Source: a bacterium (GTDB lineage Bacteria > Patescibacteriota > Doudnabacteria > UBA920). From it: a stretch of 64,000 bases of DNA. Positions 2,633 to 38,992 of this stretch are shown piece by piece (within the stretch, counting starts at the first letter, position 1; each line of letters starts with the position of its first letter). The stretch covers positions 50,358-114,357 of the forward strand of contig JAKAGU010000001.1 of the NCBI GenBank assembly GCA_021825655.1, written 5' to 3'. Below the pieces are notes generated by a model. The model searched no databases and was not told the origin of the DNA. It saw only the letters and a list, made by a program, of their open reading frames with translations. The position numbers and the translations under genes were made by a program.

Positions 2633-3979
2633 CTATATAAACAGTTTATCCAGAATTAAATCCATCTCCTGTTTGAAGCCGTCTTTATCCTTAACTAAAG
2701 TCTCCATTTTTTCTACTGCATGCATTACAGTCGTGTGGTCACGCCCCCCAAAAAAATCACCAATTGAAGGGAAGGAGCTGTCCAGCTCCCGGCGAATAAG
2801 ATACATGGCTATCTGCCTTGGTTTTACAAATTCTTTTTTTCGCGACTGTTTTACCAGGTCTTCCATAGAGATGTTGTAGAATTCGGCGACCACCTCGGCA
2901 ATTTTTTTCGCTGAGGTGACTTTCTTTTTAGCCCCGACAATACTGGCCAAAATCCCTTTAGCCTGCTCCAAAACCAACCCCCGGTTATCCATTTGTTGAT
3001 AAATCGCCAGGCGGTTAAGTGCCCCTTCCAACTCTCGAACGTTATTTTGGATGTTTTCCGCGATATAAAAGAGGATTTCTTCCGGCATCTGCACCCCGCG
3101 TTTTTCCATTTTAGTGCGTAAAATTGCCATGCGGGTTTCGAGATCGGGCGCTTGGATATCCGCAATCATCCCCCACTCAAACCGGGAGATCAGCCGCTGT
3201 TCTATGGCCGGAATTTCTTTCGGCGGCCGGTCGGAGGTGATGATGATTTGCTTTCCGTTGTCGCGTAATTCGTTGAAAGTATGGAAAAATTCTTCCTGGG
3301 TGCCTTCCTTGCCCGCCAAAAATTGGATATCGTCTATAAGCAAAGCATCCACTTCACGGTAGGCTTTTTTAAAATCATCCATGCGCTTCTGGCTGATAGC
3401 GTTAATATAGTCGTTGGTAAATTTTTCACTTGTAACATATAGAATTTTTTTATGGCTGGATTCCAGAATGCGGTGCCCCACAGCCTGCATTAAATGGGTT
3501 TTACCTAAACCCACCCCGCCGTAAATGAAGAGCGGGTTGTATTGCGTGCCCGGATTTTTTGCCACAGCCTGGCTGGCTGCGTGGGCAAGCTCGTTATTTT
3601 TTCCGATTATCAGGGTTTCAAAAGTGTATTTTGGGTTTAAACCAGAGGTAAAAGCCGAGGGTCTCTCCTTGGTAAGGCCGGCACTCTCGGATTTTTTGAA
3701 CATATTGGTTTGCTGGCTGGCCTGTGTTGTGGGTTGGTTGCCAAGTTGGTATCTAATTTCTTTAATCTCTGGGGCAATCCCTTTCAGGCTTTTAAGCATT
3801 TCTTGGTGGTACTTAGCAGAAATCCAGTCGCGGTTGAAAGCGCTGGGTACGCCGATGATGATATGGTCCGCACCTCTTTCTAGGATGAGTGTGTTCTTAA
3901 ACCAGGTATTAAAGTTGGCCTTGCTCAGTGAAACTTCTAGACTGCCTAAGATTGCTTGCCAGAGCTGCTGATTAGTCAT
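2633..3979 (-). CDS. dnaA: Chromosomal replication initiator DnaA
   Basis: 448 aa with AAA+ Walker A ([10 protein letters not shown]) and the C-terminal DnaA DNA-binding signature. Confidence 0.95.
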
Positions 3980-4234
3980 ACTTTTGTTTCTAAAAATGGC
4001 GGTTCAATGGTTAAAAACACGTGTCTTATCTATTCTAACAGCCAGTTATCAACATGTAAAATTCATTTTTTTGCGCTTATTAATAAGGAAAAACTATTTA
4101 TCTGTTTATATCGTGTGGATAAATTGTGGGTTGGTCCAGGTTCCGAATTATCTTTGGCTTAGAATTGACTTTAACACCTGTTTTTTAGTATAATTAGCCA
4201 AGATATTATTAAAAAGTGAGAGAGGATTTCGCGT
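3980..4234. promoter_or_regulatory. rpmH-dnaA intergenic region with DnaA boxes and rpmH promoter
   Basis: Perfect DnaA box TGTGGATAA (reverse complement of TTATCCACA) at about 4114-4122. TTATCAACA at about 4046-4054 and several TTATCT-type half matches. rpmH promoter TTGACT, 18 nt spacer, TATAAT at about 4165-4194. Confidence 0.6.
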
Positions 4235-4369
4235 ATGAAGCGAACTTATCAACCCAAAGTTAAGCGCAGAAAGCGCAGGCATGGTTTCATGAAGCGCATG
4301 CAAACCAAAACCGGCCGCAATGTTTTGGCCAGAAGAAGGGCAAAAGGCAGAAAAAAATTGAGCGTTTAA
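4235..4369 (+). CDS. rpmH: 50S ribosomal protein L34
   Basis: 44 aa ([44 protein letters not shown]). Below the ORF-track size cutoff. Canonical position upstream of rnpA. Confidence 0.85.
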
Positions 4370-4378
4370 TTTTTCAGA

Positions 4379-4735
4379 GTGATGTTTAAAAAAGAACACC
4401 GCCTGGCCAAAACCAAAGATGTAAAAGCGGCATTTGAGCAAGGTCGGGGTTTTTTTAACCCTTATTTTTCAGTCAGGCATAATGCCAAAACAGGGCAGCA
4501 AAGGCGTTTTACAGTCGTGGTTTCTACTAAAGTGTCAAAAAACGCCACCCGACGTAATCGTTTAAAAAGGTTAGTAAGAGAGTTTGCCCGCATAAATATG
4601 GCAAATTTTTTACCCGGTGACTATATTTTGGCCTTAAAACCAAAAGCCAACCAATTACCAGACCCAGAAGTGGTGGTGGTTTTGAGTAAGCTCCTTATCC
4701 AAGCCAAAGTTTATGAAAATAAGAGAATTGTCTAA
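4379..4735 (+). CDS. rnpA: Ribonuclease P protein component
   Basis: 118 aa basic protein with an RnpA-like RNR motif region, immediately after rpmH. The first Met in the ORF track is a GTG. Confidence 0.85.
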   Translation: MMFKKEHRLAKTKDVKAAFEQGRGFFNPYFSVRHNAKTGQQRRFTVVVSTKVSKNATRRNRLKRLVREFARINMANFLPGDYILALKPKANQLPDPEVVVVLSKLLIQAKVYENKRIV

Positions 4736-4970
4736 AAATTTATTACTGGGATTGATTGGTTTGTACCAAAGATCCCTCTCCCCCGATCATGGCTGGTTTA
4801 AGCACCGACATCCCCATGGCTATTGTCGGTTTTACCCGAGTTGCAGCGAGTATGCTCGCCAGGCGGTAACCAAGCACGGCGCGGTTAAGGGGGCTGGTTT
4901 GAGCGCAGCACGGCTCTTAAGGTGCCACCCCTGGGCTCAGCCGAAGGTTGACAATGTACCCAATTCTTAA
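4713..4970 (+). CDS. yidD: Membrane protein insertion efficiency factor YidD
   Basis: 85 aa with the conserved YidD/haemolytic-domain motif (HGYCRFYPSCSEYA). Overlaps the rnpA 3' end as in many bacteria. Confidence 0.85.
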   Translation: MKIRELSKNLLLGLIGLYQRSLSPDHGWFKHRHPHGYCRFYPSCSEYARQAVTKHGAVKGAGLSAARLLRCHPWAQPKVDNVPNS

Positions 4971-4985
4971 TTTTAAACCAAACCC

Positions 4986-5696
4986 ATGTTTCTTGTTTCT
5001 CTGTACAACGAAATCATCTATCGTCCCCTTCTAAACCTTTTGGTTTATTTTTACCACTACATTCCCGATATTGGAGTGGTGATTGTGCTTTTAACCATAC
5101 TGATTAGGCTGCTTATGGCGCCCAGCTTCCATAAGTCTTTAAAGAGCCAGAAGGCAATGACCGAGCTGCAGCCTAAGCTTAATGAGGTTAAGGAAAAGTA
5201 TAAGGATGACAAGGAAGGCCAGGCGCGGGCTATGATGCAGTTGTATAAAGACCACCAAATTAACCCGCTTTCTTCCTGTTTGCCTCTTTTGGTCCAGTTT
5301 CCCATCTTAATTGCCCTTTATCAGGTTTTCAGCAAGGCTTTAAACAATCACTTAACCGGTTTGTATGCTTTTGTACCCAAACCGGAGACCATCAACCCCT
5401 TCTTTTTACACCTAATGGATTTGTCCAAACCCAGCATAGTTTTGGGCGTGCTAGCCGGCTTGGCCCAGTTCTGGCAGTCGAAAATGATGCTGCCCAAAAC
5501 TTCAGCAGCTTCGCAGGATGCAACCACCAAAGCAATTCAGATGCAAACCACCTATTTTTTGCCTATTGTTTCCGTGGTGATTGCCATTAAGTTGCCGGCT
5601 GGCCTGCCTTTGTACTGGCTGGTGACAACTCTCTTCGCCGTCGGCCAGCAGTATTGGCTGGTGAAAAGACAGCAACCCCAGGCTCCGCGTTCTTAA
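4986..5696 (+). CDS. yidC: Membrane protein insertase YidC/Oxa1 family (short form)
   Basis: 236 aa polytopic protein of Oxa1/YidC type in conserved rnpA-yidD-yidC synteny. Confidence 0.85.
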   Translation: MFLVSLYNEIIYRPLLNLLVYFYHYIPDIGVVIVLLTILIRLLMAPSFHKSLKSQKAMTELQPKLNEVKEKYKDDKEGQARAMMQLYKDHQINPLSSCLPLLVQFPILIALYQVFSKALNNHLTGLYAFVPKPETINPFFLHLMDLSKPSIVLGVLAGLAQFWQSKMMLPKTSAASQDATTKAIQMQTTYFLPIVSVVIAIKLPAGLPLYWLVTTLFAVGQQYWLVKRQQPQAPRS

Positions 5697-5764
5697 ATTT
5701 TGGCGATTAGTTTCAGCGGCCATACTTTTCGCCGCTGGCTACTAATTACTAAATCTCGAAATCC

Positions 5765-6235
5765 ATGACCGACTACAATAAGATAGAAGCCGTCAAACAG
5801 ATAATCGGCCAAACCTTAGACCATCTCGGCGTACCCGGCAAGGTGGAGTTTGAAGAAAGTATTACCAAAGGGCTGATTTTTAATATTTCTTCCCCGGAAT
5901 CTTTTATGTTGATCGGCCGCCAGGGCGCCACCCTGCATGCTTTGCAGGTTTTGGTGCAGAATATCGCCGTCAAACAATTGGGCGGCCAGGAGCCGTTTTG
6001 GTTTACCTTAGACGTGGATGATTATAAGCGCAAGCGGGAATGGTATTTGAAAGAAACAGCCAAAGCTGCGGTAGACCATTTGAAAAAAACCGATAAGCCG
6101 GTGCGGCTGGAGTCGATGCCGGCTTACGAGCGCCGGTTTGTACATGCTTATCTGCAGGAGCATTTTCCCGATGTGGAAAGCGAGAGCCAGGGCGAAGACC
6201 CCCATCGGAAAATTGTTATTCGGTTTAGACGCTAA
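5765..6235 (+). CDS. jag: Jag/KhpB-like RNA-binding protein (KH plus R3H domains)
   Basis: 156 aa with a C-terminal R3H-like motif (ERRFVHAYL...HRKIVI). Conserved position after yidC. Confidence 0.75.
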   Translation: MTDYNKIEAVKQIIGQTLDHLGVPGKVEFEESITKGLIFNISSPESFMLIGRQGATLHALQVLVQNIAVKQLGGQEPFWFTLDVDDYKRKREWYLKETAKAAVDHLKKTDKPVRLESMPAYERRFVHAYLQEHFPDVESESQGEDPHRKIVIRFRR

Positions 6236-6243
6236 CCCATTTA

Positions 6244-6279
6244 AAAAACCCCGTCCTCCTTAGGAGGACGGGGTTTTAT
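6244..6279. terminator. Bidirectional intrinsic terminator
   Basis: aaaaaaCCCCGTCCTCCttaGGAGGACGGGGtttta lies between the convergent jag (+) and aldo/keto reductase (-) genes. Confidence 0.7.
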
Positions 6280-6280
6280 T

Positions 6281-7165
6281 TTAAGCCAGCGGGATGGTGT
6301 CTGAAATGTTTTCTTGGTGCGAAAAGTCTGTTTGCAGTTTTTTTACGTCTTCGGGCGCCATTGCCCAATCTAAAGCCCCCAGGTTTTCTTTTAAATGTTC
6401 CTGGTTGCTGGTTTTGGTCAGGGTAACAACGTTGGGTTGCATAACTAGCCAGTTGATGGCAATTTGGGCAGGTGTTTTTTTGTATTTGCCACACAACTTT
6501 TGAATCAAAGGTTCGCTGTCCAGGTCGGTTTTTCCTCGGGTAAGACTGCCCATGCCCAGCGGGCGCCAAGCAACCAGAAAAATGTCATTCGCCTGGCAAT
6601 ATTCAAGCAGTCCGGACTTTTCAGGTTCTCTAAACCTTACGCTGTAGTGGACCTGGGTTGCCTCAATAGGGTGCCGGGCCAGGTCCTGGGCCTGTTTGGT
6701 GTGCTCAAGGTTGAAATTACTGATACCCAGGTGTTTAATCAGCCCTTCATCAGCCAGCTCGTCCAAAGCTTTCATGCACTCCCCAATTTTTTCCTCTCCG
6801 GGGTAGCGGTGGAGGTAATAAAGGTCCAAGTAATCCGTGCCCAGTCTTTTTAAACTTGCCAAAGCCGCTTTTTTGATGTCCTGGTAGTTTAAGTGGGTCT
6901 GTTGCGCTTTGGAAGAAATAAATAGTTTTTTTCTGTCCTGGCCTAAAATTGCCTGGCCCACAAATTTTTCAGCCTGCCCGGCGGCGTAAACTTCGGCCGT
7001 ATCGATTGCGGTAATGCCTGAGTTAAGGGCTGATTTTATGGCCCCAATGTCTTTTAAATCGTCGTTATTTGGATCAGGTTCGTTGCGCCCGCCCATTGCC
7101 CAAGTGCCCAGTCCTAGCACGGGCAGCTCAAGTCCGGTTTTAAGTTTTTTTATGGGGATACTCAC
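6281..7165 (-). CDS. Aldo/keto reductase family oxidoreductase
   Basis: 294 aa. The N-terminus (LPVLGLGTWAMGG) and overall pattern are typical of the AKR family. Confidence 0.8.
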   Translation of the reverse strand: MSIPIKKLKTGLELPVLGLGTWAMGGRNEPDPNNDDLKDIGAIKSALNSGITAIDTAEVYAAGQAEKFVGQAILGQDRKKLFISSKAQQTHLNYQDIKKAALASLKRLGTDYLDLYYLHRYPGEEKIGECMKALDELADEGLIKHLGISNFNLEHTKQAQDLARHPIEATQVHYSVRFREPEKSGLLEYCQANDIFLVAWRPLGMGSLTRGKTDLDSEPLIQKLCGKYKKTPAQIAINWLVMQPNVVTLTKTSNQEHLKENLGALDWAMAPEDVKKLQTDFSHQENISDTIPLA

Positions 7166-7168
7166 GGT

Positions 7169-8359
7169 CTAGATGATTAAGGAGAGGGTGAGCCAAAATA
7201 TTAACGCCAAATCATTTTTAAAATATGGGTTGTCAATCTGGCCTTGGACCAGCAGGGTTATTATAAACAGCACCGCTCCTAAGCCGAAGGCGTTCCGGCG
7301 GTTTTTAACGCCCTGGTACAGCGCCAGAACAGATAAGCCAATAAAGCTTAACATGCCCAACAGTCCGGTTTCCACCCAAAAATCCAAGAAGATGTTGTGG
7401 GGGAAATTGTGCGTGTCCAGGTTGGGGTCGGTGTTGAGCTGCGGCCATTTTGTGGCAAAGCCGGTTAATCCCAAGCCGAAAATCGGTGACTGTTTTACGC
7501 CCTTAAGCCCTGTATTCCAGAGCGATAGGCGCGATACGGCCGATTTCTCGCCCAGGAAAGGCAAGATTACTCGATAACGGAGGTTGGGGGTAATTAATAC
7601 TATACCCGCCAGCGCCACGCCCGCCAGCAAAGCTGCGTACCTGAGCTTTTTATCTCCAGCGATTAGCACGTACAAGCCTATCCCCACTGCCAAACCCAAC
7701 CAGCCGGCCCGGGACATGGACAAAAATAACCCGACTGCTCCGAGCAGCCAGAACATAAAAAGTTTTTGGGTTAGCGGCAGGTGTTTGTAGCTGCGCACCC
7801 GTTCCATGAGGTCGGGCACCAGAAAAGCGAGCAATGGGGCGCTAAATAAAGCATAAAAATTTGGGTGCCCAAAAAAACCCAGTGCGCGCTTGGGTTCTAC
7901 GGCATTGCCCCAGTATTGGGGCGGCAGGCCGAAAAGCGTAAAGTATTGGACAATTGACCAGACGCCCATAATTCCCAGCAGCAAATAGGCGGCGTAAGTC
8001 CAAGCGTTTTTTGTGCCAGGGTTTCTGTGGAAAAGGTAGCCAAATAAAAAGAACAGGCTGATAGGCTGGAAAATAAGCACGATAAATTGCCCCAGGTTTT
8101 TTTGGGAAAAGCCCGGAACAAAAAGCGAGATCGCGCCTGCCAAAAAAAACAGGCCTACCAGCCCCAGCCACCATTTATTTAAGGACTTCAGCCAGAACCA
8201 AAAATCAGCCAGTTTTTGCTGCCGGGCAAAGTAATAGGCGAAACATAGCCAAACCAAGGCCACCCAAACCATTAACAGGTTTAGGGGCACTGGCCCGATG
8301 CTAAAACGTAATGCGTAAGCGGGGGCAAGGAGTAGGGTACAAAAGATTAAGTAAGACAT
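7169..8359 (-). CDS. O-antigen ligase (Wzy_C) family polytopic membrane protein
   Basis: 396 aa with about 10-12 predicted TM helices and a Wzy_C-like central loop (SMSRAGWLGLAVG). Tightly packed with the AKR and PBP1A genes, 3-4 nt gaps. Confidence 0.6.
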   Translation of the reverse strand: MSYLIFCTLLLAPAYALRFSIGPVPLNLLMVWVALVWLCFAYYFARQQKLADFWFWLKSLNKWWLGLVGLFFLAGAISLFVPGFSQKNLGQFIVLIFQPISLFFLFGYLFHRNPGTKNAWTYAAYLLLGIMGVWSIVQYFTLFGLPPQYWGNAVEPKRALGFFGHPNFYALFSAPLLAFLVPDLMERVRSYKHLPLTQKLFMFWLLGAVGLFLSMSRAGWLGLAVGIGLYVLIAGDKKLRYAALLAGVALAGIVLITPNLRYRVILPFLGEKSAVSRLSLWNTGLKGVKQSPIFGLGLTGFATKWPQLNTDPNLDTHNFPHNIFLDFWVETGLLGMLSFIGLSVLALYQGVKNRRNAFGLGAVLFIITLLVQGQIDNPYFKNDLALIFWLTLSLII

Positions 8360-8362
8360 GGT

Positions 8363-11245
8363 TTAAGGCACAGAGACTTTAATTTTAGGTGTGGTCAGGC
8401 CGGTGCTGGTGCGGGCAAATACCGAATATTCACCGCTGCCCGGCGACTTGGTCCAATCAATGGTGTATTGGTAGCGGCCGCTGAAGTTGCCCAGGTTTTG
8501 CGCCTGGCCAATTGGTTTGGGTGTGCCGCCTTTCGTGTTTTGGTAATAGAAATTTACGGCGTCGTAGTTCTCGGCGCTTTCAGCTTTCAAGCTGACCGGG
8601 AAAAGAATGAGGCTGGAGCCGCTGGGCTCGGTGATGGTAATGGGTTCGTTCAGAGCAAACTTAAGATTTATGCTGGTGTCCGCGGTTTTGTTGTAAACGT
8701 CCGTGGCGCGCACGGCCAAAATGTGCGTACCATCGCTGTACTTTTTATTTATATCTAGAATGTACGGGCTGGCAGTGAGGGTTGCCGCCTCCTGGCCGTC
8801 CACAGATATGGTAACTTTGCTTAACTGGTTTTCGGAACTGGCCGAAACCACAACCCGCAAAGGCAGGCTGGAAATAGTCTGGCCGTCAACGGGCTCGACA
8901 ATGTCCACGCTAGGCGGTCCGCCGGGCGTACCGTTGTTGCTCTGGGGATTGTAGGTAATGGTGCTGGGCGGGTAGACATAACCCTGCGCCTGAGCCCAGG
9001 CGATAACCGGGTTCTCCCAATCGGGATTGTCCGGTCGCTCGCTGTGAAAGACGGTAAAATTTTTGTAGACAATCTTGTCTTTGGGTGTGTCCTGGGTCGC
9101 GGGCTGGTCTGTGGTGCTGTCGTATGGCAGGGAGATGTGCACGTCGTCATACTGCGTGGGGGCATTGTAGCTGGCAAACGTTTCCACTTTGGTGGAGGGG
9201 GTTAAGCCGGTGGGGAGCTTGCCGGAAACCGCATCCACAGTTACTTGCTGAATGCCGTCCGGAGCTTTAAATTCTTCTGCGGGCTTGCCTTTTAAAGCCT
9301 CTTTCATAAAACGGTTCCAAATGGGCGCGGCCACCAAAACGCCGTCCGCGCCTTTTTTCATGTCTGTATTGGGCGTGCCGGCTCCGGGGTTGTTACCTGC
9401 CCATACGCCGGCAACCAAACTGGGAGTAAAGCCCATAGTCCAGCCATCGTGCCAGTTCTGGGTGGTGCCGGTCTTGGCAGCCACTGGCCGGTCAGGCAGG
9501 GTGAGCGGCGAATTAGGGCCAAAGACATAAGTGCGCGCAGCATTATCGCTCATTACGTTTGTCAGCAGGTACACCGCTTCAGGGTTGAGTATGGGCTGGC
9601 TGTGCTGCTGGTATTCTTCCAGGGTGTTGCCGTCCTTGTCCTCAATTTTTAATATAAAAGCTTTTTCGTTTTTTACTCCCCCGTTGGCCAGGGTGGCATA
9701 AGCAGAGACGTGGTCGATAAGCTTAACTTCACAACCGCCTAAAACCAGAGATAAGCCGCAGTCGGCCATGGGACTGGTGATGCCTAAGCTTCGCGCGGTT
9801 TGGACCACATTATCGACGCCGACCAAAGACAGGGTTTTGACGGCCGGAATATTTAAGCTGCCGGCCAAAGCCTGGCGCATGGATACCGGGCCGCGCTGTT
9901 TGCCGTCGTAGTCTTGCGGTTTGTATTCCTTGTCCCCGAATTTGCCGAAATTGGTTTCTACGTCCATCAGCATGGTGGCGGGGGCGTATTTGTAATCAGG
10001 GCCAAAGGCGGTCACGTATGCGTAGGGTTTAAAGCTGCTGCCGGGCTGGCGCGGCGCAATGGCTACATTGTAATTGGGTTCAAAAAGGCAGTCCCGCCCG
10101 GGCGTGCAATTTTTTGGCTCCGGGTCGCCAAAGTAATCCTTACTGCCCACCATGGCCAGAATTTGGCCGGTCTTCGGGTCTTCAGCCACCAAGGCGGCGT
10201 TATAAGCGTTGTATTTTTTTGCGTTCGCTTCGGCGCCTTGCTTCACTGCGTCTTCAGCAATTTTTTGCAGGTTTAAGTCCAGGGTGGTATAAACTTTTAA
10301 TCCGCCTTCTTCCAGAGTTTTTTCACCGTACTTTTTAGCCAGATAGTCCTGGACCATCATGGAAAAATGAGGGGCCTGGATGCCGGTGGTGACGTTCAAG
10401 AAGGCCACCTCTTCCTGCCGGGCTTGGGTTTCCTGGTCTTTGGTGATGTAGCCCTGGTCGCGCATTAGCGAGAGGATAGTGTTTTTGCGGTTGTCCAAAG
10501 CCTGGCGGTTGGGACCAAAAGGATTGTAATAAGTGGGGGCCTGGGGCATGGCGGCCAGGTACGCGCTCTCCGCCAAATCCAGGTCCTTTGCCGACTTGTT
10601 AAAATAGGACCGGCTGGCCGCCTCTACGCCGTAAGCGTTGCGGCCGTAAGGGATTTCATTCAGGTACATCTGCAGTACCTGGTCTTTGGTAAAGCGCGAA
10701 TCTATCGCCACGGCCAAAATCAATTCCCGGATTTTTCGGTCCCAGGATTTGTTGTTGGTAAGAATCGCGTTTTTTACCAGCTGTTGGGTAATTGTGCTGC
10801 CGCCCTGGGCTTTGCGGCCGCTGAGTACATCCACCACTGCCGAACGCAGAATCCCGGTTATAGAAATCCCCCCATGTTTGTAAAAGTCCTTATCTTCCAC
10901 CGCAATCGTGGCGTGTTTTAAGTTGTCCGTAATTTGGTCAAGGTTAACCTGGGTGCGCTTAATTTCGCCATGAATTTCATACAGCAGTTGCCCGTCGCGC
11001 GCAAAAATTTTTGTTGATTCAGCCACGTTGCGGTCCATGAGCCGGTTCGGGTCGGGCAAATCTTTGGCATAATATAAAAATAGGATGGCAATGCCCAATA
11101 CGCCCAAAGCAGCGAGTCGGAACAGCCAGGTTAAGGTTTTTCGCCAGTTCCAGCGGAAAGGTAATTTAGCTTTTCCCGTGGTGCGGCTTTTAACCACCGG
11201 CTTGGACGCGGGCCGGTCTTTGGTTTTAAACGAGTAAATTTTCAT
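8363..11245 (-). CDS. Penicillin-binding protein 1A (bifunctional transglycosylase/transpeptidase) with a roughly 300 aa C-terminal extension
   Basis: 960 aa with an N-terminal TM anchor, GT51 motifs (EDKDFYKHGGI...GGSTITQQLVKN), a transpeptidase domain, and a Ser/Thr-rich beta-rich C-terminal tail. Confidence 0.85.
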   Translation of the reverse strand: MKIYSFKTKDRPASKPVVKSRTTGKAKLPFRWNWRKTLTWLFRLAALGVLGIAILFLYYAKDLPDPNRLMDRNVAESTKIFARDGQLLYEIHGEIKRTQVNLDQITDNLKHATIAVEDKDFYKHGGISITGILRSAVVDVLSGRKAQGGSTITQQLVKNAILTNNKSWDRKIRELILAVAIDSRFTKDQVLQMYLNEIPYGRNAYGVEAASRSYFNKSAKDLDLAESAYLAAMPQAPTYYNPFGPNRQALDNRKNTILSLMRDQGYITKDQETQARQEEVAFLNVTTGIQAPHFSMMVQDYLAKKYGEKTLEEGGLKVYTTLDLNLQKIAEDAVKQGAEANAKKYNAYNAALVAEDPKTGQILAMVGSKDYFGDPEPKNCTPGRDCLFEPNYNVAIAPRQPGSSFKPYAYVTAFGPDYKYAPATMLMDVETNFGKFGDKEYKPQDYDGKQRGPVSMRQALAGSLNIPAVKTLSLVGVDNVVQTARSLGITSPMADCGLSLVLGGCEVKLIDHVSAYATLANGGVKNEKAFILKIEDKDGNTLEEYQQHSQPILNPEAVYLLTNVMSDNAARTYVFGPNSPLTLPDRPVAAKTGTTQNWHDGWTMGFTPSLVAGVWAGNNPGAGTPNTDMKKGADGVLVAAPIWNRFMKEALKGKPAEEFKAPDGIQQVTVDAVSGKLPTGLTPSTKVETFASYNAPTQYDDVHISLPYDSTTDQPATQDTPKDKIVYKNFTVFHSERPDNPDWENPVIAWAQAQGYVYPPSTITYNPQSNNGTPGGPPSVDIVEPVDGQTISSLPLRVVVSASSENQLSKVTISVDGQEAATLTASPYILDINKKYSDGTHILAVRATDVYNKTADTSINLKFALNEPITITEPSGSSLILFPVSLKAESAENYDAVNFYYQNTKGGTPKPIGQAQNLGNFSGRYQYTIDWTKSPGSGEYSVFARTSTGLTTPKIKVSVP

Positions 11246-11308
11246 AACTTAATTATAACGGTTTTCCTCTAAAAATGGTATAATGCAGAAAGCATTAAGA
11301 ACTATGCC

Positions 11309-12475
11309 ATGGACAACATTCAAGAACTGCTTAGCCGGGGGGTGGAAGAGGTTATCGAACGTGAAAAACTGGAAGCTGTGCTGAAGGGCAAAAAGAAACT
11401 CAGAGTCAAGCTGGGGATTGACCCAACCAGCCCCAATATCCACATTGGCCGGGCGGTGGTGCTGTGGAAGCTGCGTGCTTTTCAAGAATTGGGCCACAAG
11501 GTGATATTTATTGTGGGGGATTTTACCGGCCTGATCGGCGACACCTCGGACAAGGATGCGGAACGGCCCATGCTTTCGGAAAAACAGATTGCGGTTAACC
11601 TGAAAACTTACTTTGAGCAGGCCTATAAAATTTTGGACAAGAAAAAAACTGAAGTTTATTACAATTCCAAATGGCTGAAGAAGCTTGGTTTTGCGGAAAT
11701 CGGCCGCCTGGCCGACTTATTCAGCTTGCACGAGTTTGAAGCCCGGGAAAATATTGCCAAACGCCTCAAATCCGGCAAGCGCGTGTCTTTGCGCGAGCTG
11801 CTGTATCCCCTGATGCAGGGCTATGACAGCGTGGCCGTGAAAGCTGATGTGGAATTGGGCGGTACCGACCAACGGTTTAACCTGTTGGCGGGCCGGGTTA
11901 TCCAGCCCGCATATGGGCAGTCTCCCCAAAATATTTTGACCATGACTTTAATGGAGGGCACGGATGGCCGCAAGATGTCGTCTTCTTGGGGCAACACTAT
12001 TAACATTACTGCCGAACCCAATGATATGTTCGGCAAGGCCATGTCCATTCCGGACGACTTGATAAAAAAATATTTTATCTTAGCTACGCGCGTGCCTCTT
12101 GCTGCGATAGACGAGATTGTCCGCAGCAATTCCAACCCGCGTGACCAAAAAATGCGCCTGGCCCTTGAAATTACCAGATTGTACCACGGCGCAAAAAAAG
12201 CCGAGATTGCAAAACAGGCTTTCGTAAGCCAATTTAGCAAAGGCGAATTGCCTGAAGATATCAAAACAAAGACATTAAAGGCCGGCAGATACCAGCTTTT
12301 GGATATTTTAATTGAAACAGGCATAGTGGGCAGCAAGTCCGAAGGACGGCGGTTGTTTGAACAAAACGGCGTTAAGTTAAACCAAAAAACAACCAAAGAC
12401 GCTTTGGTGGTTTTGGATGGAAAGAGTGAGATTTTGCTGCAGGTGGGAAAAAGAAAATTTCTTCGCGTAAAATAA
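11309..12475 (+). CDS. tyrS: Tyrosine--tRNA ligase
   Basis: 388 aa class I aaRS with a HIGH-type motif (PNIHIGRAV), a KMSSS variant of KMSKS, and a C-terminal S4-like domain. Confidence 0.8.
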   Translation: MDNIQELLSRGVEEVIEREKLEAVLKGKKKLRVKLGIDPTSPNIHIGRAVVLWKLRAFQELGHKVIFIVGDFTGLIGDTSDKDAERPMLSEKQIAVNLKTYFEQAYKILDKKKTEVYYNSKWLKKLGFAEIGRLADLFSLHEFEARENIAKRLKSGKRVSLRELLYPLMQGYDSVAVKADVELGGTDQRFNLLAGRVIQPAYGQSPQNILTMTLMEGTDGRKMSSSWGNTINITAEPNDMFGKAMSIPDDLIKKYFILATRVPLAAIDEIVRSNSNPRDQKMRLALEITRLYHGAKKAEIAKQAFVSQFSKGELPEDIKTKTLKAGRYQLLDILIETGIVGSKSEGRRLFEQNGVKLNQKTTKDALVVLDGKSEILLQVGKRKFLRVK

Positions 12476-15887: not shown

Positions 15888-17516
15888 TCAGGAATGCGCA
15901 AAAGCTTGGTTGATCTCGGTTTCTTCCCAGCCCGCCCGCTGCAGTTCTTCCCGGATTTGCTGGTCAGTCAGTTCTACATTTCGGGCCTGTGTGATGAAGT
16001 CCACCAAGTGGGGGTGGGGCAGGTTTAAGGATAAGCGGCTCTGGGCATGCAGCTCTGTTTCCGGCAAAGGCAGGGGCGTGCCCGCGGCCTCCATTTTTTT
16101 AAGCAGCTCGTTTTTATGGTCTTCTTCGGCCTGTAGTTCAATTTCCAAAGCTTGGATTTGCTGCTCATCTTTTTTTAGGCGCCGGTAGAGGTGTTCTAAG
16201 GCCAGCAGGGCCAGGAGGATTAAAAGCAGCCGCCCGCCGACTACAAACCAGGTAAAAGCGTCAACCTTTTTGATGCTGGCCCAGAACTGCTGCCCCGCGC
16301 TGTCCAGGGATGTCCCGGCCGCAATTAAGTTTTCGCAGTTGGTGGTGTAATTGTCGAAGATCTTAGTACTGGTAAAATTTGGGTTTAGTTCCGCCGCTGC
16401 ATCAAAACTCTTCATAGCTTTTTGGCACTGCCGGGTGCGATAGTAGCCCGCAGCCTGTCGGAAGATTTCTGCGTACGGCCCTTCCGTATTGTTGACGTTG
16501 TTCTTTGTCAAAAACTCTTTGGCCAGATTAATAGGGATGGCAAAAGCAAAGTTGTCGCCTTTTTGCCTTAAGGCGTCGCCGGTCTGGAACGTAATAATGC
16601 CGATTACCCGGCCGTCTTTGTCCAAGAGGGGGCCGCCCGAAGAACCTTGGGAAATTTTAGCGTCGGTTTGAAAAATTTTAAACTCTTTGCTCTGGGCGAA
16701 CTTCAGCGCGCTGACCAGCCCTTGGGTGAGGGTGGCTTCGAGCGGGCTGCGGCCGTTGACTTCCGCGGTGGACGGAAAACCAAAGACCAGAATTTTATCA
16801 CCCGTGCTTACTTGGTTGCTGTCTCCCAGCAGTAGGGCCGGCAAGTTGCCCGCCTGGATTTTAATCAGGGCAACGTCCTTTTCGTCCGCGGCAAAATTAT
16901 TATTGGCACTGACTATGCTGGCCTCAAAACCGGTTTTCAATAACGAGGTCAGGTATTCCTGGGAGTCCGAGGGGTTGAGCACAGTGAGTTTGCTGACAAT
17001 ATTAAACTGTACCCGGTTTTTTAATGCTGCCAGGGAGTTTTGGTAAAAGTTATTAAAATTGTCAGCGTCTTTAAAATTTTGAAGCAAGGTTTGGTCGTCG
17101 AGACTGCCGAGTTTGGCTTGGAGCGCATTGTTTAAGAGTTCTTCCAAATAGCTTTCTTTAATGCTCTCTTCCGTGGCCACGTGGGCGTTGGTCAAAATAT
17201 AGCCGTCGGGGTTGACTACAAAGCCGCTGCCGCTCAGGTAGACATCAACTTTTTCCGCTTGTTGTGGCTGGTTGTCGGGAAAAACCAAAGCCGCTGCCGC
17301 CAAGTTTATTTCAAAATTCGGCAAAGTAACCTGGCCGCTGGCATGGTTGATAATCCGGACAATGCTCGGCTTGATCATTTGAGCCAGGTCCTGTTGGTCC
17401 AGCGGCTGGGCCGGGCCAGGCGCTTGAGCCTTTAAGCTGAGGTAGGCAGCCAGGCCGCATAAAAAAACGGCAAAAACCGCCACCAAGAATTTGGAATTGT
17501 ATTTTAGTTTCGTCAT
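15888..17516 (-). CDS. Membrane-anchored trypsin-like (S1C, HtrA-like) serine protease with a C-terminal TM helix and cytoplasmic tail
   Basis: Catalytic motifs GYILTNAHV and DAKISQGSSGGPLL. No PDZ domain is apparent. Start placed at the internal ATG (MTKLKYNSKFLVAVFAVFLCG, a signal anchor). The ORF-track extension up to 17738 is antisense to tRNA genes and is rejected. Confidence 0.7.
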   Translation of the reverse strand: MTKLKYNSKFLVAVFAVFLCGLAAYLSLKAQAPGPAQPLDQQDLAQMIKPSIVRIINHASGQVTLPNFEINLAAAALVFPDNQPQQAEKVDVYLSGSGFVVNPDGYILTNAHVATEESIKESYLEELLNNALQAKLGSLDDQTLLQNFKDADNFNNFYQNSLAALKNRVQFNIVSKLTVLNPSDSQEYLTSLLKTGFEASIVSANNNFAADEKDVALIKIQAGNLPALLLGDSNQVSTGDKILVFGFPSTAEVNGRSPLEATLTQGLVSALKFAQSKEFKIFQTDAKISQGSSGGPLLDKDGRVIGIITFQTGDALRQKGDNFAFAIPINLAKEFLTKNNVNNTEGPYAEIFRQAAGYYRTRQCQKAMKSFDAAAELNPNFTSTKIFDNYTTNCENLIAAGTSLDSAGQQFWASIKKVDAFTWFVVGGRLLLILLALLALEHLYRRLKKDEQQIQALEIELQAEEDHKNELLKKMEAAGTPLPLPETELHAQSRLSLNLPHPHLVDFITQARNVELTDQQIREELQRAGWEETEINQAFAHS

Positions 17517-17621
17517 GTTTTCTTTTTTGCAGTGTAACATAAAGCTGTAGAAAAAGCATCCCGGGGGGCGTTGAAAAAGCCCGCTAAATAAACTATAATA
17601 AGGTGAGCCAGAAAATTTTCG

Positions 17622-17690
17622 GGCGTAAGCTTGGGTTGGTAGAGCGGACGTCTTATACACGTCTGGTCCTAGGCCCGCCCCGTCACCCTT
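17622..17690 (+). pseudogene. Truncated or degenerate copy of tRNA-Ile(UAU): 5' two-thirds retained, no T-arm or acceptor 3' strand
   Basis: About 36 nt (ggttggtagagcggacgtcttatacacgtctggtcc) are identical to the downstream tRNA, and the flanking 5' portion is similar. The 3' part diverges (ctaggcccgccccgtcaccc) and cannot form a T-arm. Confidence 0.5.
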
Positions 17691-17698
17691 TAGTAAAT

Positions 17699-17774
17699 GC
17701 GCGCGTAGCTCAGTTGGTAGAGCGGACGTCTTATACACGTCTGGTCCCAGGTTCGAGTCCTGGCGCGCGCACCA
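17699..17774 (+). tRNA. tRNA-Ile (anticodon UAU), CCA encoded
   Basis: Folded by hand: acceptor gcgcgcg/cgcgcgc, D-arm gctc-agttggta-gagc, anticodon stem gacgt/acgtc, loop cTTATac (U33, anticodon TAT, A37), T-arm ccagg-ttcgagt-cctgg, then ACCA. Confidence 0.8.
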
Positions 17775-36986: not shown

Positions 36987-37068
36987 ATGGCTAAAATGTT
37001 AAAATACCCCTGCTTCTCTCCTGCCATCCAAGGCAAAAGCAGCGTTAATTTAGACTTAAAGCAACCTT

Positions 37069-37272
37069 ATGAGCAAGAACCGAAATTCTTCTAGCCCCAA
37101 ACCCGTGAGTTCTCCGGAACTGCAAGCGGCCGAGCATGTGATTATCAGCCACGACTTGTGGAAAGTGCTTATTTTAAATGTGATTTATCTGGCGGGCCTT
37201 TTGGCTTTGTATTATGCCAACCAACAAACCCATTTTTTGGAAAATTGGTTCAGCAAACTCATGAGCATGTAA
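37069..37272 (+). CDS. Hypothetical small membrane protein
   Basis: 67 aa with one TM helix (VLILNVIYLAGLLALYY). Followed by a strong terminator. Confidence 0.35.
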   Translation: MSKNRNSSSPKPVSSPELQAAEHVIISHDLWKVLILNVIYLAGLLALYYANQQTHFLENWFSKLMSM

Positions 37273-37285
37273 GCTTTCGGATTTA

Positions 37286-37316
37286 ATAACCGGCCACTCT
37301 GGCCGGTTTTTTGTTT
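37286..37316 (+). terminator. Intrinsic terminator
   Basis: AACCGGCCactctGGCCGGTTttttgttttt. Confidence 0.65.
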
Positions 37317-37318
37317 TT

Positions 37319-38875
37319 GTGATACAATATATCATATATGATATATTAACTTTTATTACTATGACTACCCAAAAGATGATTGGCCAGCTAATCTCCAGAC
37401 TCCGCGAACAAAAGGGTCTGACCCAGGCGCAGTTTGCGAGAAGCCTTAAAACCAGCCAGTCCGCCGTGGCCCGCATGGAAAACGGTTTGCAGAACCTGAG
37501 TACGGAAATGCTGGAAAAAATTGGGGACATACTGAAAAAACCCCTGATTGCGCTGGCGGGAGACTCGGTTAATTTAAGGATTGAGGGCGGCCACAAATTG
37601 TCCGGCCGGGTTGCCACCAACACTTCCAAGAACGCCGCCATGGGCCTTTTGGCCGCCAGCTTGTTGAACGCCGGGCAGACTACCTTAAAAAACGTGCCAA
37701 GAATTGAAGAGGTTAACCGGATGCTTGAGGTGCTTTCAAGCATCGGAGTCAGGGCTGAATGGCAGGGCCAGGATTTAAAAATTACACCCCCGAAAAAATT
37801 CAATCTCAAGAACCTAAATGCCGAAGCCGCGGTCAAAACCCGCAGTATTTTAATGCTTATCGGGCCGTTGGTGCATTTGTTTAGGCATTTTAAGTTGCCG
37901 GTTGCCGGCGGCTGCAAGTTGGGTGCGCGCACTATCCGCCCGCATTTATATGCTTTAGAGAAGCTGGGTGTGAATATCCAGACCAGCCACGACCAGTATG
38001 ATATTAGCGTGCAGGGTTTGGCGTCCGCAGAGGTAGTTCTTTATGAAACCGGCGATACGGTAACGGAAAACGCTCTGCTGGCCGCGGCCAAATTGCCGGG
38101 TAGGACCGTTATCAAATATGCCTCCTCGAATTATATGGTCCAGGATGTATGCTTCTTTTTGGAAAAGTTGGGCGTGCGGGTTGAAGGTTTAGGCACTTCC
38201 ACTCTGGTTGTTCATGGCAAGCCGGAAATTAAGGCGGACGTGGAGTACTATTTAAGCGAAGACCCGATTGAGTCCATGCTTTTTTTGTCCATTGCTGCTA
38301 CCACGAATTCCAGCATCACCATTGAGCGCTGCCCTATAGATTTTTTGGAACTGGAACTGCTTAAGCTGGAAAAGATGGGCTTGAAATTCCAAATCCAAAA
38401 ACACTATAAAGCCCGCAACGGCCGGACTAACCTGGTGGATATAAAAACTTTGCCTTCCAAGCTTACGGCTTTGGAAGAAAAGATTCATCCCCTGCCTTAC
38501 CCCGGCATTAACATAGATAACTTGCCGTTTTTTGTCCCAATTGCCACGCAGGCCGAAGGCTCTACCCTGATTCATGATTGGGTCTACGAAAACCGGGCCA
38601 TCTATTATTTGGAATTATCTAAACTTAGGGCCAATATCATCCTGGCCGATCCGCATCGGGTGTACATTGAGGGGCCTACGGAGTTGCGCGCGGCCGAGGT
38701 AATTTGTCCCCCAGCCTTAAGGCCAGCAGCAATTATTCTGATTGGCATGCTGGCGGCCAAAGGCACTTCGGTGTTGCGGAACGTGTACTCCATTTCCCGC
38801 GGCTACGAGGATCTGGTTAACCGGTTAAAAAAACTGGGCGCAAAAATTGAAATCATCAACAGTCTTGGTATATAG
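37319..38875 (+). CDS. murA: UDP-N-acetylglucosamine 1-carboxyvinyltransferase (MurA) with an N-terminal XRE-type helix-turn-helix fusion
   Basis: The likely start is the internal ATG near 37358 (MTTQKMIGQLISRLREQKGLTQAQFARSLKTSQSAVARMENG, an HTH_3/XRE pattern). The EPSP-synthase-fold MurA body begins at LRIEGGHKLSGRVATNTSKNAAMGLLAASLL. The catalytic Cys loop is retained (LPVAGGCKLGARTIRPH). Confidence 0.8.
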   Translation: MIQYIIYDILTFITMTTQKMIGQLISRLREQKGLTQAQFARSLKTSQSAVARMENGLQNLSTEMLEKIGDILKKPLIALAGDSVNLRIEGGHKLSGRVATNTSKNAAMGLLAASLLNAGQTTLKNVPRIEEVNRMLEVLSSIGVRAEWQGQDLKITPPKKFNLKNLNAEAAVKTRSILMLIGPLVHLFRHFKLPVAGGCKLGARTIRPHLYALEKLGVNIQTSHDQYDISVQGLASAEVVLYETGDTVTENALLAAAKLPGRTVIKYASSNYMVQDVCFFLEKLGVRVEGLGTSTLVVHGKPEIKADVEYYLSEDPIESMLFLSIAATTNSSITIERCPIDFLELELLKLEKMGLKFQIQKHYKARNGRTNLVDIKTLPSKLTALEEKIHPLPYPGINIDNLPFFVPIATQAEGSTLIHDWVYENRAIYYLELSKLRANIILADPHRVYIEGPTELRAAEVICPPALRPAAIILIGMLAAKGTSVLRNVYSISRGYEDLVNRLKKLGAKIEIINSLGI

Positions 38876-38883
38876 GCTGAAAT

Positions 38884-38914
38884 AAAAATACCCGCCGTTC
38901 GGCGGGTTTTTTTA
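38884..38914. terminator. Bidirectional intrinsic terminator
   Basis: aaaaatACCCGCCGttcGGCGGGTttttttatt between murA and the convergent tRNA-Ala. Confidence 0.6.
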
Positions 38915-38918
38915 TTAT

Positions 38919-38992
38919 TGGTGGACCTGGGGGGAATCGAACCCCCGCCTCGGCAATGCGAATGCCGCGTAATACCACTTTACTACAGGCCC
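38919..38992 (-). tRNA. tRNA-Ala (anticodon CGC)
   Basis: Reverse complement folds as acceptor gggcctg/caggtcc with the G3:U70 alanine identity pair, anticodon stem cggca/tgccg with loop tTCGCat, T-arm ggggg-ttcgatt-ccccc, then ACCA. Short D-loop and variable loop give 74 nt. Confidence 0.75.

Follow-up and report, generated by a model that had tools for sequence, protein, structure and literature searches.

The gene at 37361..38875 on the plus strand of the window, that is, of the whole 64-kb stretch of DNA analysed here, encodes a MurA carrying an N-terminal XRE-type helix-turn-helix (HTH) domain, and the favoured reading, to which a probability of about 0.75 is given, is that this HTH-MurA is a bifunctional enzyme-repressor that autoregulates murA. 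By transferring enolpyruvyl from PEP to UDP-GlcNAc, MurA carries out the committed entry step into peptidoglycan synthesis, and it is the target of the antibiotic fosfomycin; most accounts describe MurA enzymes as monomers, which counts against the enzyme-repressor reading. A perfect palindrome, newly recognised here, lies upstream of the HTH-murA gene and is predicted to be the operator. Autoregulation was one of the functions put forward for the HTH in a sequence-only reading of this locus, and it is the one favoured by the presence of this element on the gene's own promoter and by its co-variation with the recognition helix.

A MurA joined to a helix-turn-helix domain

A single open reading frame with no internal stops extends over 37319..38875 (plus strand). 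The first start codon in the frame is a GTG at 37319, which merely opens it; the true start is probably the ATG at 37361, giving a product of 504 aa, because the gene callers in four assemblies give the 504-aa product from there, because homologues begin 32-36 residues ahead of the QSA motif, and because the 42 nt between the GTG and the ATG hold the promoter and the palindrome. The open frame reported by the sequence-only reading therefore exists, and the start that it gave, 37319, lies 42 nt too far upstream. Profiles, solved relatives and gene calls support the coding sequence of 504 aa and a stop.

The MurA (UDP-GlcNAc 1-carboxyvinyltransferase) domain occupies aa 70-504 (37568..38872, plus strand), as assigned by Pfam, NCBIfam, solved relatives and Foldseek. 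The Pfam profile EPSP_synthase (PF00275) matches aa 75-489 over profile positions 2-417 of 417 (E 4.8e-47), the score of 326.9 bits for the NCBIfam subfamily model PRK09369 exceeds the cutoff (297), and that of 322.1 bits for the strict equivalog model TIGR01072 falls short of it (392.7). The closest solved relatives (5ujs, 5u4h and 1uae) are all MurA, as are the top 43 Foldseek matches of the AF2 model (mean pLDDT 85.6) in the PDB, with target-normalised TM-scores of 0.84-0.91. Lys90, Asn91, Arg161, Cys185, Arg190, Asp301, Asp386 and Arg412, the catalytic and ligand residues, are present, align with those of solved MurA and are invariant in 76 orthologues; we take their E. coli equivalents to be Lys22, Asn23, Arg91, Cys115, Arg120, Asp305, Asp369 and Arg397. 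The earlier claim of a complete MurA is thus borne out, including its opening motif LRIEGGHKLSG, found at aa 72-82, and the retained catalytic Cys loop AGGCKLGARTIRPH, which contains Cys185 (codon at 37913-37915, plus strand). Compared with the canonical MurA of E. coli/E. cloacae (1UAE) and C. jejuni (5UJS), HTH-MurA has the same two-domain inside-out alpha/beta-barrel fold (TM-score 0.85-0.91) and shares the catalytic Cys loop, modelled here as flexible, but adds 69 N-terminal residues (HTH plus linker) and an insertion of about 14 residues around aa 345-380.

It could be argued that the MurA-like domain is a pseudoenzyme acting only as a ligand sensor, while a separate canonical MurA performs catalysis. 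Two members of a sister clade, P0138 and P0274 (see below), have just this arrangement, the TIGR01072 score is under the cutoff, and the search for a second murA covers 64 kb of the genome. However, the complete and invariant set of eight catalytic/ligand residues and the PRK09369 score over the cutoff, together with the absence of a second MurA-like sequence from the 64-kb window, where no HTH paralogue was found either, make this a very unlikely explanation. The C-terminal 435 residues are probably a catalytically competent MurA, a statement that carries the likelihood of the enzyme-repressor reading as a whole.

The XRE/HTH_3 domain comprises aa 1-60 (37361..37540, plus strand), according to Pfam, the AF2 model and conservation. 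In agreement with the in-frame HTH described before, Pfam HTH_3 (PF01381) matches aa 12-62 with 45.9 bits (cutoff 23; E 6e-12), and PF13560 matches with 42 bits (cutoff 27); the solved sequences nearest to the domain are DBP48, PezA and SinR. The AF2 model of the full protein, a check proposed with the original observation, has four helices in the HTH (2-17, 22-29, 33-40 and 48-58), a low-confidence linker and the MurA fold; as a monomer prediction, it gives no reliable guide to contacts between HTH and MurA or to a dimer interface. The predicted recognition helix, QSAVARME, corresponds to aa 33-40 (37457-37480, plus strand) and is directly preceded by Ser32. The linker, aa 61-69 (37541..37567, plus strand), is short and poorly conserved, as seen from pLDDT (below 50 at residues 63-67) and pairwise identity. 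Mean pairwise identity is 61% for the HTH, 60% for MurA and 31% for the linker and, as judged by these values, the HTH is under a constraint equal to that of the enzyme. In alignment A3, which was picked by whole-protein similarity, the residues of the recognition helix vary little or not at all; in the scan of 80 loci, which used the peptide pattern QSA[VI][AN]R[IM]ExG, the invariance of those residues is partly by construction.

An identical protein was found on eight contigs from four independent assemblies. The top 120 homologues all combine HTH_3 and EPSP_synthase in about 505 aa, and fusions of this kind, sought in other genomes as had been advised, have their HTH/MurA junction encoded in at least 577 species-level genomes. 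The best 80 of these belong to Patescibacteria without exception, with an uninterrupted ORF in all 80 kept loci, and cultured Nonomuraea (Actinobacteria) also carry HTH-murA. That the fusion arose as an artefact of assembly, frameshift or annotation, or that translation begins solely at an internal start past the HTH, is a general possibility in metagenome assemblies, with nothing beyond that in its favour, and can practically be dismissed here, given the identical ORF in independent assemblies, the hundreds of orthologues that share the junction without a stop, an amino-acid conservation of the HTH as strong as that of MurA, and the lack of a conserved Met or start codon around the junction; the statement that neither a stop nor an alternative start separates the two domains therefore holds. 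Taken together, these comparisons show a genuine HTH-MurA fusion that is conserved and maintained by selection.

The promoter palindrome and its distribution

An intrinsic terminator at 37288..37318 (plus strand), an inverted repeat with a stem at 37288-37308 (9 bp, six GC pairs) followed by a T-tract, closes an upstream 67-aa ORF without a Pfam match, so that HTH-murA is considered its own transcription unit. On the other side, a bidirectional intrinsic terminator is predicted at 38890..38915, between murA and a convergent tRNA-Ala(cgc) (38919-38992), and the gene is thereby flanked by terminators on both sides. Its neighbours include DUF4446, bactofilin and RlmH.

Between the upstream terminator and the ATG lies a perfect 22-bp palindrome at 37326..37347, an inverted repeat whose arms, AATATATCATA and TATGATATATT, are 100% complementary and joined without a gap, and which is the predicted operator for an HTH dimer. 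Its core is the 16-mer ATATCATATATGATAT (ATATCA-N4-TGATAT, 37329-37344), and the centres of the half-sites are 10 bp apart, that is, one helical turn. At up to three mismatches the 22-bp palindrome has a single match in the 64 kb, against none in 100 shuffles. The right half contains a predicted extended -10 element, TGaTATATT (37339..37347, plus strand; hexamer 37342-37347), part of a promoter-like site at 37319-37347 with a TG before the second hexamer; since the right half-site coincides with this element, some of its conservation reflects the promoter. The ATG starts 13 nt past the -10 hexamer, a spacing that suggests a murA leader that is very short or absent. Shine-Dalgarno analysis was uninformative as support for a leaderless transcript, since SD-like motifs are rare in all genes here (14 of 49, and 6 of 79 HTH-murA). 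No second operator was found in the 64-kb window even with one mismatch, and matches with two mismatches fall inside genes, so that no regulon beyond murA is seen in this stretch.

The palindrome recurs in relatives. Of 81 loci, 37 carry the exact 16-mer core ahead of HTH-murA, within 150 nt in 35 of them and at -167 and -190 in the other two, and the core has zero occurrences elsewhere in about 470 kb. When one mismatch is allowed, 50 of the 81 loci have the core, mostly ending 9-13 nt ahead of the ATG. Some relatives have the palindrome in the gap separating divergent murB and murA, or before murC. A point against the enzyme-repressor reading is that Saccharibacterial sites are often only half-palindromic, being perfectly symmetric in 11 of 45 cases, compared with 23 of 33 in other lineages. 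In a blind metagenome search for TATATCAYATRTGATATA, 25 of 120 occurrences preceded an HTH-MurA gene by 14-173 nt, and about 20 more were located at Gp49-toxin/XRE-antitoxin operons, in which the antitoxin recognition helix, T[KRT]QS[ND][IV]ARMExG, resembles that of HTH-MurA. In Nonomuraea, with a GC content of about 70%, a perfect ATCTCATATGTGAGAT palindrome precedes HTH-murA by 14 nt, which indicates that gene and operator travelled together into this genus. By these counts, the putative operator is conserved phylum-wide and highly specific to the HTH-murA promoter.

A function of the palindrome as RNA, in the form of a 5' hairpin affecting translation or stability, appears highly improbable. 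A 9-bp A-U hairpin is possible, and joint changes in the two arms of variant sites would keep RNA pairing too; nevertheless the fold is weak and no better than that of shuffled sequences (z = -1.37), the symmetry passes through the centre (CATATG) with no obligatory loop, and very divergent lineages preserve the sequence itself as well as its pairing. In addition, the element overlaps the -10 and so is probably mostly untranscribed, and there is no Rfam match: in the Rfam search tRNAs alone reach the gathering score, with sub-threshold noise at 37000-37500.

The operator variants alter both half-sites together, and the form ATAGCA..TGCTAT pairs with a Thr in place of Ser32. A neighbour-joining tree places Thr and this operator together in one clade and, separately from it, in L068; within the Thr clade, L084 carries Ser with TATCA; the co-change of residue and operator has apparently arisen independently at least twice, the tree behind this correlation being rough and the independent events few. 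A simple code in which residue 32 reads base 4 is weakened, as Thr-containing antitoxins still adjoin TATCA sites.

It has also been considered that the HTH could be a protein-docking or localisation domain, in the manner of RodZ and MreB, with the palindrome either belonging to the promoter or serving another regulator. Some HTH domains do mediate protein contacts, and RodZ, like HTH-MurA, carries an XRE-type HTH on a cell-wall-related protein; the double role of the right half-site as extended -10 would also fit. Yet RodZ, whose HTH binds MreB, continues into a transmembrane helix and a periplasmic domain, whereas here the partner is an enzyme, a membrane segment is absent and all residues after the HTH belong to the MurA fold. 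Moreover, the left half-site, which has no promoter role, is still conserved as an exact mirror image, the full palindrome does not occur in other promoters across the 470 kb, its symmetric variants co-vary with the residue ahead of the recognition helix, it went with the gene into Nonomuraea, and related stand-alone XRE antitoxins occupy loci with the same palindrome. RodZ-like docking, another use suggested earlier for the HTH, is therefore not supported, the conserved partner being a DNA site and no membrane anchor being present, and the explanation is regarded as unlikely. Most likely, the HTH domain binds the palindrome.

Proposed autoregulation of murA

In the enzyme-repressor reading, two HTH copies, each tethered to MurA by a flexible linker of about nine residues, would bind ATATCA-N4-TGATAT, overlapping the extended -10 and the start site of murA. 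Repression is taken as the sign of regulation because the palindrome overlaps the -10, and HTH-MurA probably switches off its own gene: as the protein rises, operator binding would increase and murA would be repressed, a negative autoregulation of the MurA level. Other mur genes are perhaps co-regulated in relatives with a site near murB or murC. We infer dimerisation, DNA binding, repression, a leaderless transcript and any modulation by ligands (UDP-GlcNAc, PEP, UDP-MurNAc).

Enzyme-repressors that act on the promoters of their own pathway are known, namely the biotin ligase BirA, the proline dehydrogenase PutA and NadR. Like these trigger enzymes, HTH-MurA unites enzyme and DNA-binding domain in a single protein, as far as sequence evidence shows, a design that would tie transcription directly to the level or state of the enzyme; BirA (winged helix) and PutA (ribbon-helix-helix) differ from it in the class of DNA-binding fold and in the enzyme. 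The HTH itself resembles HigA-like XRE antitoxins of Gp49(HigB-like)/XRE type II toxin-antitoxin systems, to which it is 42-48% identical with a near-identical recognition helix (QSxxARxExG), and in which the same TATATCAyATrTGATATA palindrome lies at the operon promoter or start codon, in a classic autoregulatory layout. In contrast to these antitoxins, HTH-MurA is without a toxin partner, no toxin gene being found among the neighbours of the locus, and its HTH is joined to an essential biosynthetic enzyme in place of an antitoxin C-terminal domain, with murA as the predicted target. In Firmicutes, MurA is known to be controlled through ClpCP proteolysis, in which ReoM/PrkA take part, and feedback inhibition by UDP-MurNAc is known too, and to our knowledge transcriptional self-control of the enzyme-repressor kind is undescribed for MurA. 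No description of the HTH-MurA fusion or of its operator was found in the full-text literature searched, an absence that does not amount to proof.

In the sister clade of HTH-MurA-like proteins the catalytic Cys has been lost. These Cys-less genes form divergent pairs with mur operons whose own murA is canonical and has no HTH, and the palindrome is found in the intergenic region common to the gene and the operon; P0138 and P0274, for instance, combine the HTH with a Cys-less MurA fold next to an HTH-less murA. The family may thus offer a natural series from enzyme to pseudoenzyme-regulator. A broader and more tentative proposal, itself rather doubtful, is that HTH-MurA could be a feedback regulator of peptidoglycan-precursor synthesis that is ancestral in Patescibacteria and spans the phylum, in which the open or closed state of MurA, free or with UDP-GlcNAc/PEP or UDP-MurNAc bound, would gate HTH dimerisation on the operator and precursor flux would directly set how strongly murA is transcribed, together with murB, murC and murD where these are linked to it; the Cys-less offshoots would then be pure metabolite sensor-regulators, and the gene-operator cassette would be mobile and have reached Actinobacteria, which are the hosts of Saccharibacteria.

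If the enzyme-repressor reading is true, it would represent a previously undescribed mode of MurA control, model bacteria keeping the enzyme's level under tight control by quite different means. Ser32 with TATCA and Thr32 with TAGCA provide a specificity pair for testing HTH-DNA recognition. The regulatory mechanisms of Patescibacteria (CPR) "remain virtually unknown" according to a 2024 perspective (PMC11665869), and HTH-MurA and its palindrome would constitute a candidate transcription-factor/operator pair conserved across the CPR, among them Saccharibacteria, which are genetically tractable, and beyond the CPR in cultured Nonomuraea; the compact promoter and operator could become a genetic tool where inducible systems are wanting.

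Architecture and distribution of the HTH-MurA protein

The open reading frame at 37319..38875 (+) was found uninterrupted in the window and encodes, as the sequence-only reading had proposed, an XRE-type helix-turn-helix (HTH) domain followed by MurA. Pfam assigns HTH_3 to residues 12-62 of the 504-aa product (E 6e-12) and EPSP_synthase to residues 75-489, with the entire model covered (E 4.8e-47); in NCBIfam the score lies above the threshold of the MurA subfamily PRK09369 and below the cutoff of the strict equivalog TIGR01072. The closest solved structures are MurA in every case, and the AlphaFold2 model of the full protein (mean pLDDT 85.6) has the MurA fold, with target-normalised TM-scores of 0.85-0.91 against MurA structures; the HTH is modelled as a distinct bundle of four helices joined by a linker of low confidence. 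The motifs quoted in the sequence-only reading are all present: Cys185, within AGGCKLGAR, matches the catalytic Cys in alignments to solved MurA, and there are counterparts of E. coli Lys22/Asn23, Arg91, Arg120, Asp305, Asp369 and Arg397. On predicted fold and residues the protein is thus assigned to both the MurA and the XRE-HTH families. The catalytic residues show no variation among 76 orthologues, which makes it unlikely that the window's HTH-MurA is a pure sensor. Mean pairwise identity is 61% over residues 5-60, 60% over residues 70-500 and 31% in the 9-residue linker, so that, judged by identity, the constraint on the HTH equals that on the enzyme domain. Little or no variation occurs in the recognition-helix region T31-S32-Q33-S34-A35-x-x-R38-x-E40-x-G42-x-Q44-N45 of an alignment whose members were picked by similarity over the whole protein; in the 80 genome loci described below, some of these residues are set by the search pattern itself.

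The GTG at 37319, from which the gene had been read, is only the first start codon of the open frame. ATG 37361 is favoured because it is the start picked by gene callers in four assemblies, because homologues start 32-36 residues ahead of the QSA motif, and because the 42 nt between the two codons hold the promoter.

The identical 504-aa protein occurs on 8 contigs of the independent assemblies GCA_027341245.1, GCA_021840085.1, ERZ27237587 and ERZ27237563, and the best 120 homologues in a collection of 5.8 billion proteins are all of about 500-515 aa and carry HTH_3 and EPSP_synthase; those that are named are labelled plain MurA of Patescibacteria, Doudnabacteria or Parcubacteria. At least 577 genomes matched when an alignment restricted to the N-terminal region was used to search one genome per species. 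The best 80 of these are Patescibacteria by record title (Saccharibacteria, Doudna-, Pacei-/Parcu-, Gracili-, Lipton-, Zambryski- and Taylorbacteria), except for a few titled 'bacterium' and one titled Gammaproteobacteria (L025), and in each the frame is unbroken from the HTH across about 470 more residues, contig permitting. Among 1.84 billion cluster representatives searched without a profile, about 130 clusters (50% identity) span the junction. The worry that a frameshift or assembly artefact had created the fusion is therefore excluded, the same protein being present in independent assemblies and the frame continuous in 80 of 80 loci. Database labels read plain 'MurA' or 'helix-turn-helix domain-containing protein', and a literature search found no account of the fusion, of its operator, or of transcriptional self-control by MurA.

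A conserved palindrome at the HTH-murA promoter

Intrinsic terminators flank the gene, one at 37288-37318 at the end of a small upstream ORF and a bidirectional one at 38890-38915, between murA and a convergent tRNA-Ala, so HTH-murA forms a transcription unit by itself. Upstream of it are DUF4446 and bactofilin, and RlmH and a Wzy_C protein follow downstream; a Mur ligase and Ddl are encoded at a distance of about 4-6 kb, and no second MurA or related HTH was found in the 64-kb window. The small ORF (67 aa, 37069-37272, +), directly 5' of the palindrome described below and ending at the terminator, is annotated as a gene in another assembly; it has no match in Pfam and, judging from a hydrophobic stretch, may encode a small membrane protein. 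Elsewhere in the window, ARAGORN predicts a tRNA-Ile with anticodon TAT (17699-17774, +), unusual in bacteria, where AUA is normally decoded by a CAT tRNA carrying lysidine; the 5' end of the predicted TAT tRNA gene runs into the start of a long minus-strand ORF (15888-17738).

The interval from terminator to ATG contains a perfect 22-bp palindrome (37326-37347; halves AATATATCATA and TATGATATATT), which is single-copy in the window even at 3 mismatches, was absent from 100 shuffles, and holds an extended -10, TGaTATATT, in its right half. Nearly all of the 80 genome loci, a set picked by protein and not by DNA, have TATATCAyATrTGATATA or a close variant in the 130 nt upstream of HTH-murA. Of 81 loci, 35 have the exact 16-mer core (ATATCA-N4-TGATAT or ATAGCA-N4-TGCTAT) no farther than 150 nt upstream, and two further exact matches lie at -167 and -190, which gives 37 matches at the HTH-murA promoter and none in the other ~470 kb. 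With up to one mismatch the site is found in 50 of 81 loci, mostly ending 9-13 nt 5' of the ATG. That the palindrome acts as an RNA hairpin is disfavoured, since the RNA folds weakly (z = -1.37), the symmetry extends through the centre, the sequence itself is kept beyond mere pairing, and there is no Rfam match. The same conserved DNA target, together with the lack of any membrane segment in HTH-MurA, also disfavours the earlier suggestion that the HTH serves for protein docking as in RodZ; the palindrome is best read as a predicted operator.

In seven loci (L051, L055, L057, L065, L068, L070 and L075; around 2700-3000) murB is divergent and adjacent, so that the site lies within the common murB-murA intergenic region, and murB is within 3 kb of HTH-murA in 42 of 80 loci. 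There are four off-target one-mismatch matches, one of them (L065:909-924) 13 nt 5' of a murC-like ORF. Some lineages may thus have a small mur regulon. The near-constant distance of 9-13 nt from operator and -10 to ATG, with no Shine-Dalgarno sequence (window 37339-37363 and the equivalents in L005-L084), indicates that the mRNA may be leaderless or almost so, although such motifs are scarce for all window genes (14 of 49) and do not discriminate on this question.

Some lineages differ in the number or symmetry of sites. L005, L006, L009, L011 and L020, all closely related to the window organism, have two operator-like copies, against one in the window, the first about 55-105 nt upstream, just past a terminator, and the other abutting the ATG. 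In Saccharibacterial HTH-MurA, recognition-helix residue 37 is Asn, not Ala, and the sites are more often half-palindromic, with the right half TGGTAT giving a TGGTATAAT extended -10; perfectly symmetric sites number 11 of 45, against 23 of 33 in other lineages.

Co-variation, transfer and apparent origin of the HTH and its site

Operator variants are altered symmetrically in both half-sites. ATAGCA..TGCTAT is found at L046, L047, L048, L056, L062, L068 and L069, and hybrid sites at L035, L045 and L050; the proteins at all of these have Thr for Ser32, the residue directly before the recognition helix (TTQSA or STQSA vs TSQSA). In a rough neighbour-joining tree of the MurA domain, Thr with the variant site forms one clade, plus L068 independently, the sisters of which (L082, L083) have Ser with TATCA, as does L084 inside the Thr clade. 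Because the tree is rough, the events are few, and antitoxins with Thr at this position still stand at TATCA sites, the co-variation is regarded as supportive and not as a recognition code.

A third symmetric variant was found outside the phylum, in cultured species of Nonomuraea, a genus of Actinobacteria, with 246 sequences in the cluster. In Nonomuraea sp. NEAU-A123 (GCA_018603905.1), with a genome of ~70% GC, the perfect palindrome ATCTCATATGTGAGAT lies 14 nt 5' of the ATG of the HTH-MurA gene (site L207:5972-5987, gene L207:6001-7530). A phage-type integrase adjoins the gene, as does a small HTH gene. Gene and site evidently moved together, as would fit a self-contained autoregulatory cassette, and the distribution is a hint that the gene has passed horizontally between Patescibacteria and Actinobacteria, the latter being the phylum that hosts Saccharibacteria.

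In a reverse search of metagenome contigs with the 18-mer palindrome alone, 25 of the 120 matches listed lay 14-173 nt upstream of an HTH-MurA gene. About 20 others fell at operons of a Gp49 (PF05973; HigB-like) toxin followed by a ~100-aa XRE antitoxin (L110:5232-5249, L111:298-315, L171:2043-2060; also L173, L174, L184, L193, L196, L137, L140 and others), the HTH of which is 42-48% identical to that of MurA, with the recognition helix T[KRT]QS[ND][IV]ARMExG. Since type II antitoxins classically self-regulate through promoter palindromes, the same HTH type and palindrome are here paired in two unrelated gene contexts; given the identity between the domains, these HigA-like operons are the likely evolutionary source of both HTH and site. 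The palindrome includes the toxin ATG, so that the toxins start MIY.... A stand-alone 103-aa HTH protein (L127:5868-6176, -), with exactly the MurA-type recognition helix TSQSAVARMESG and no MurA domain attached, overlaps the same palindrome.

Predicted self-regulation and Cys-less relatives

At the sequence level, self-regulation is supported by the architecture with its intact active site, the specific conserved palindrome at the gene's own promoter, the protein-site co-variation and the co-transfer. Two HTH domains would occupy the two half-sites, the centres of which are 10 bp apart on one helix face. Since the extended -10 and the probable start point both overlap with the site, its occupation would repress transcription and hold MurA abundance homeostatic. 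MurA undergoes a large open/closed movement on UDP-GlcNAc binding and forms a tight feedback complex with UDP-MurNAc; more speculatively, either could gate dimerisation or HTH availability. By analogy, HTH-MurA may work like the bifunctional enzyme-repressors BirA, PutA and NadR.

A small divergent clade (P0138, P0271-P0274, P0164) retains both HTH and MurA fold; its Cys loop, Arg120 and Arg91 are gone, and close to the C-terminus the conserved RGYE has become xWYE. In both loci recovered the Cys-less gene and a mur operon point away from each other: in L205 (genes 3174-11518) murD, two Mur ligases, an HTH-less 437-aa murA (GGCVLGLR) and murB; in L206, a shorter contig (genes 95-5003), an unannotated 164-aa ORF, one Mur ligase and an HTH-less murA. 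The palindrome lies in the common intergenic region (L205 9973-9994, 6 nt before the ATG; L206 3482-3497). These proteins look like pseudoenzyme regulators, and the keeping of an HTH-bearing copy in the position of a pathway regulator, beside a separate MurA, speaks for a regulatory role that belongs to the HTH-MurA module itself.

The proposed mechanism is directly open to simple biochemistry, and Nonomuraea provides experimentally tractable carriers. Taken together, these data place a putative self-regulating form of MurA, an antibiotic target, phylum-wide in a group the regulation of which is essentially uncharted.
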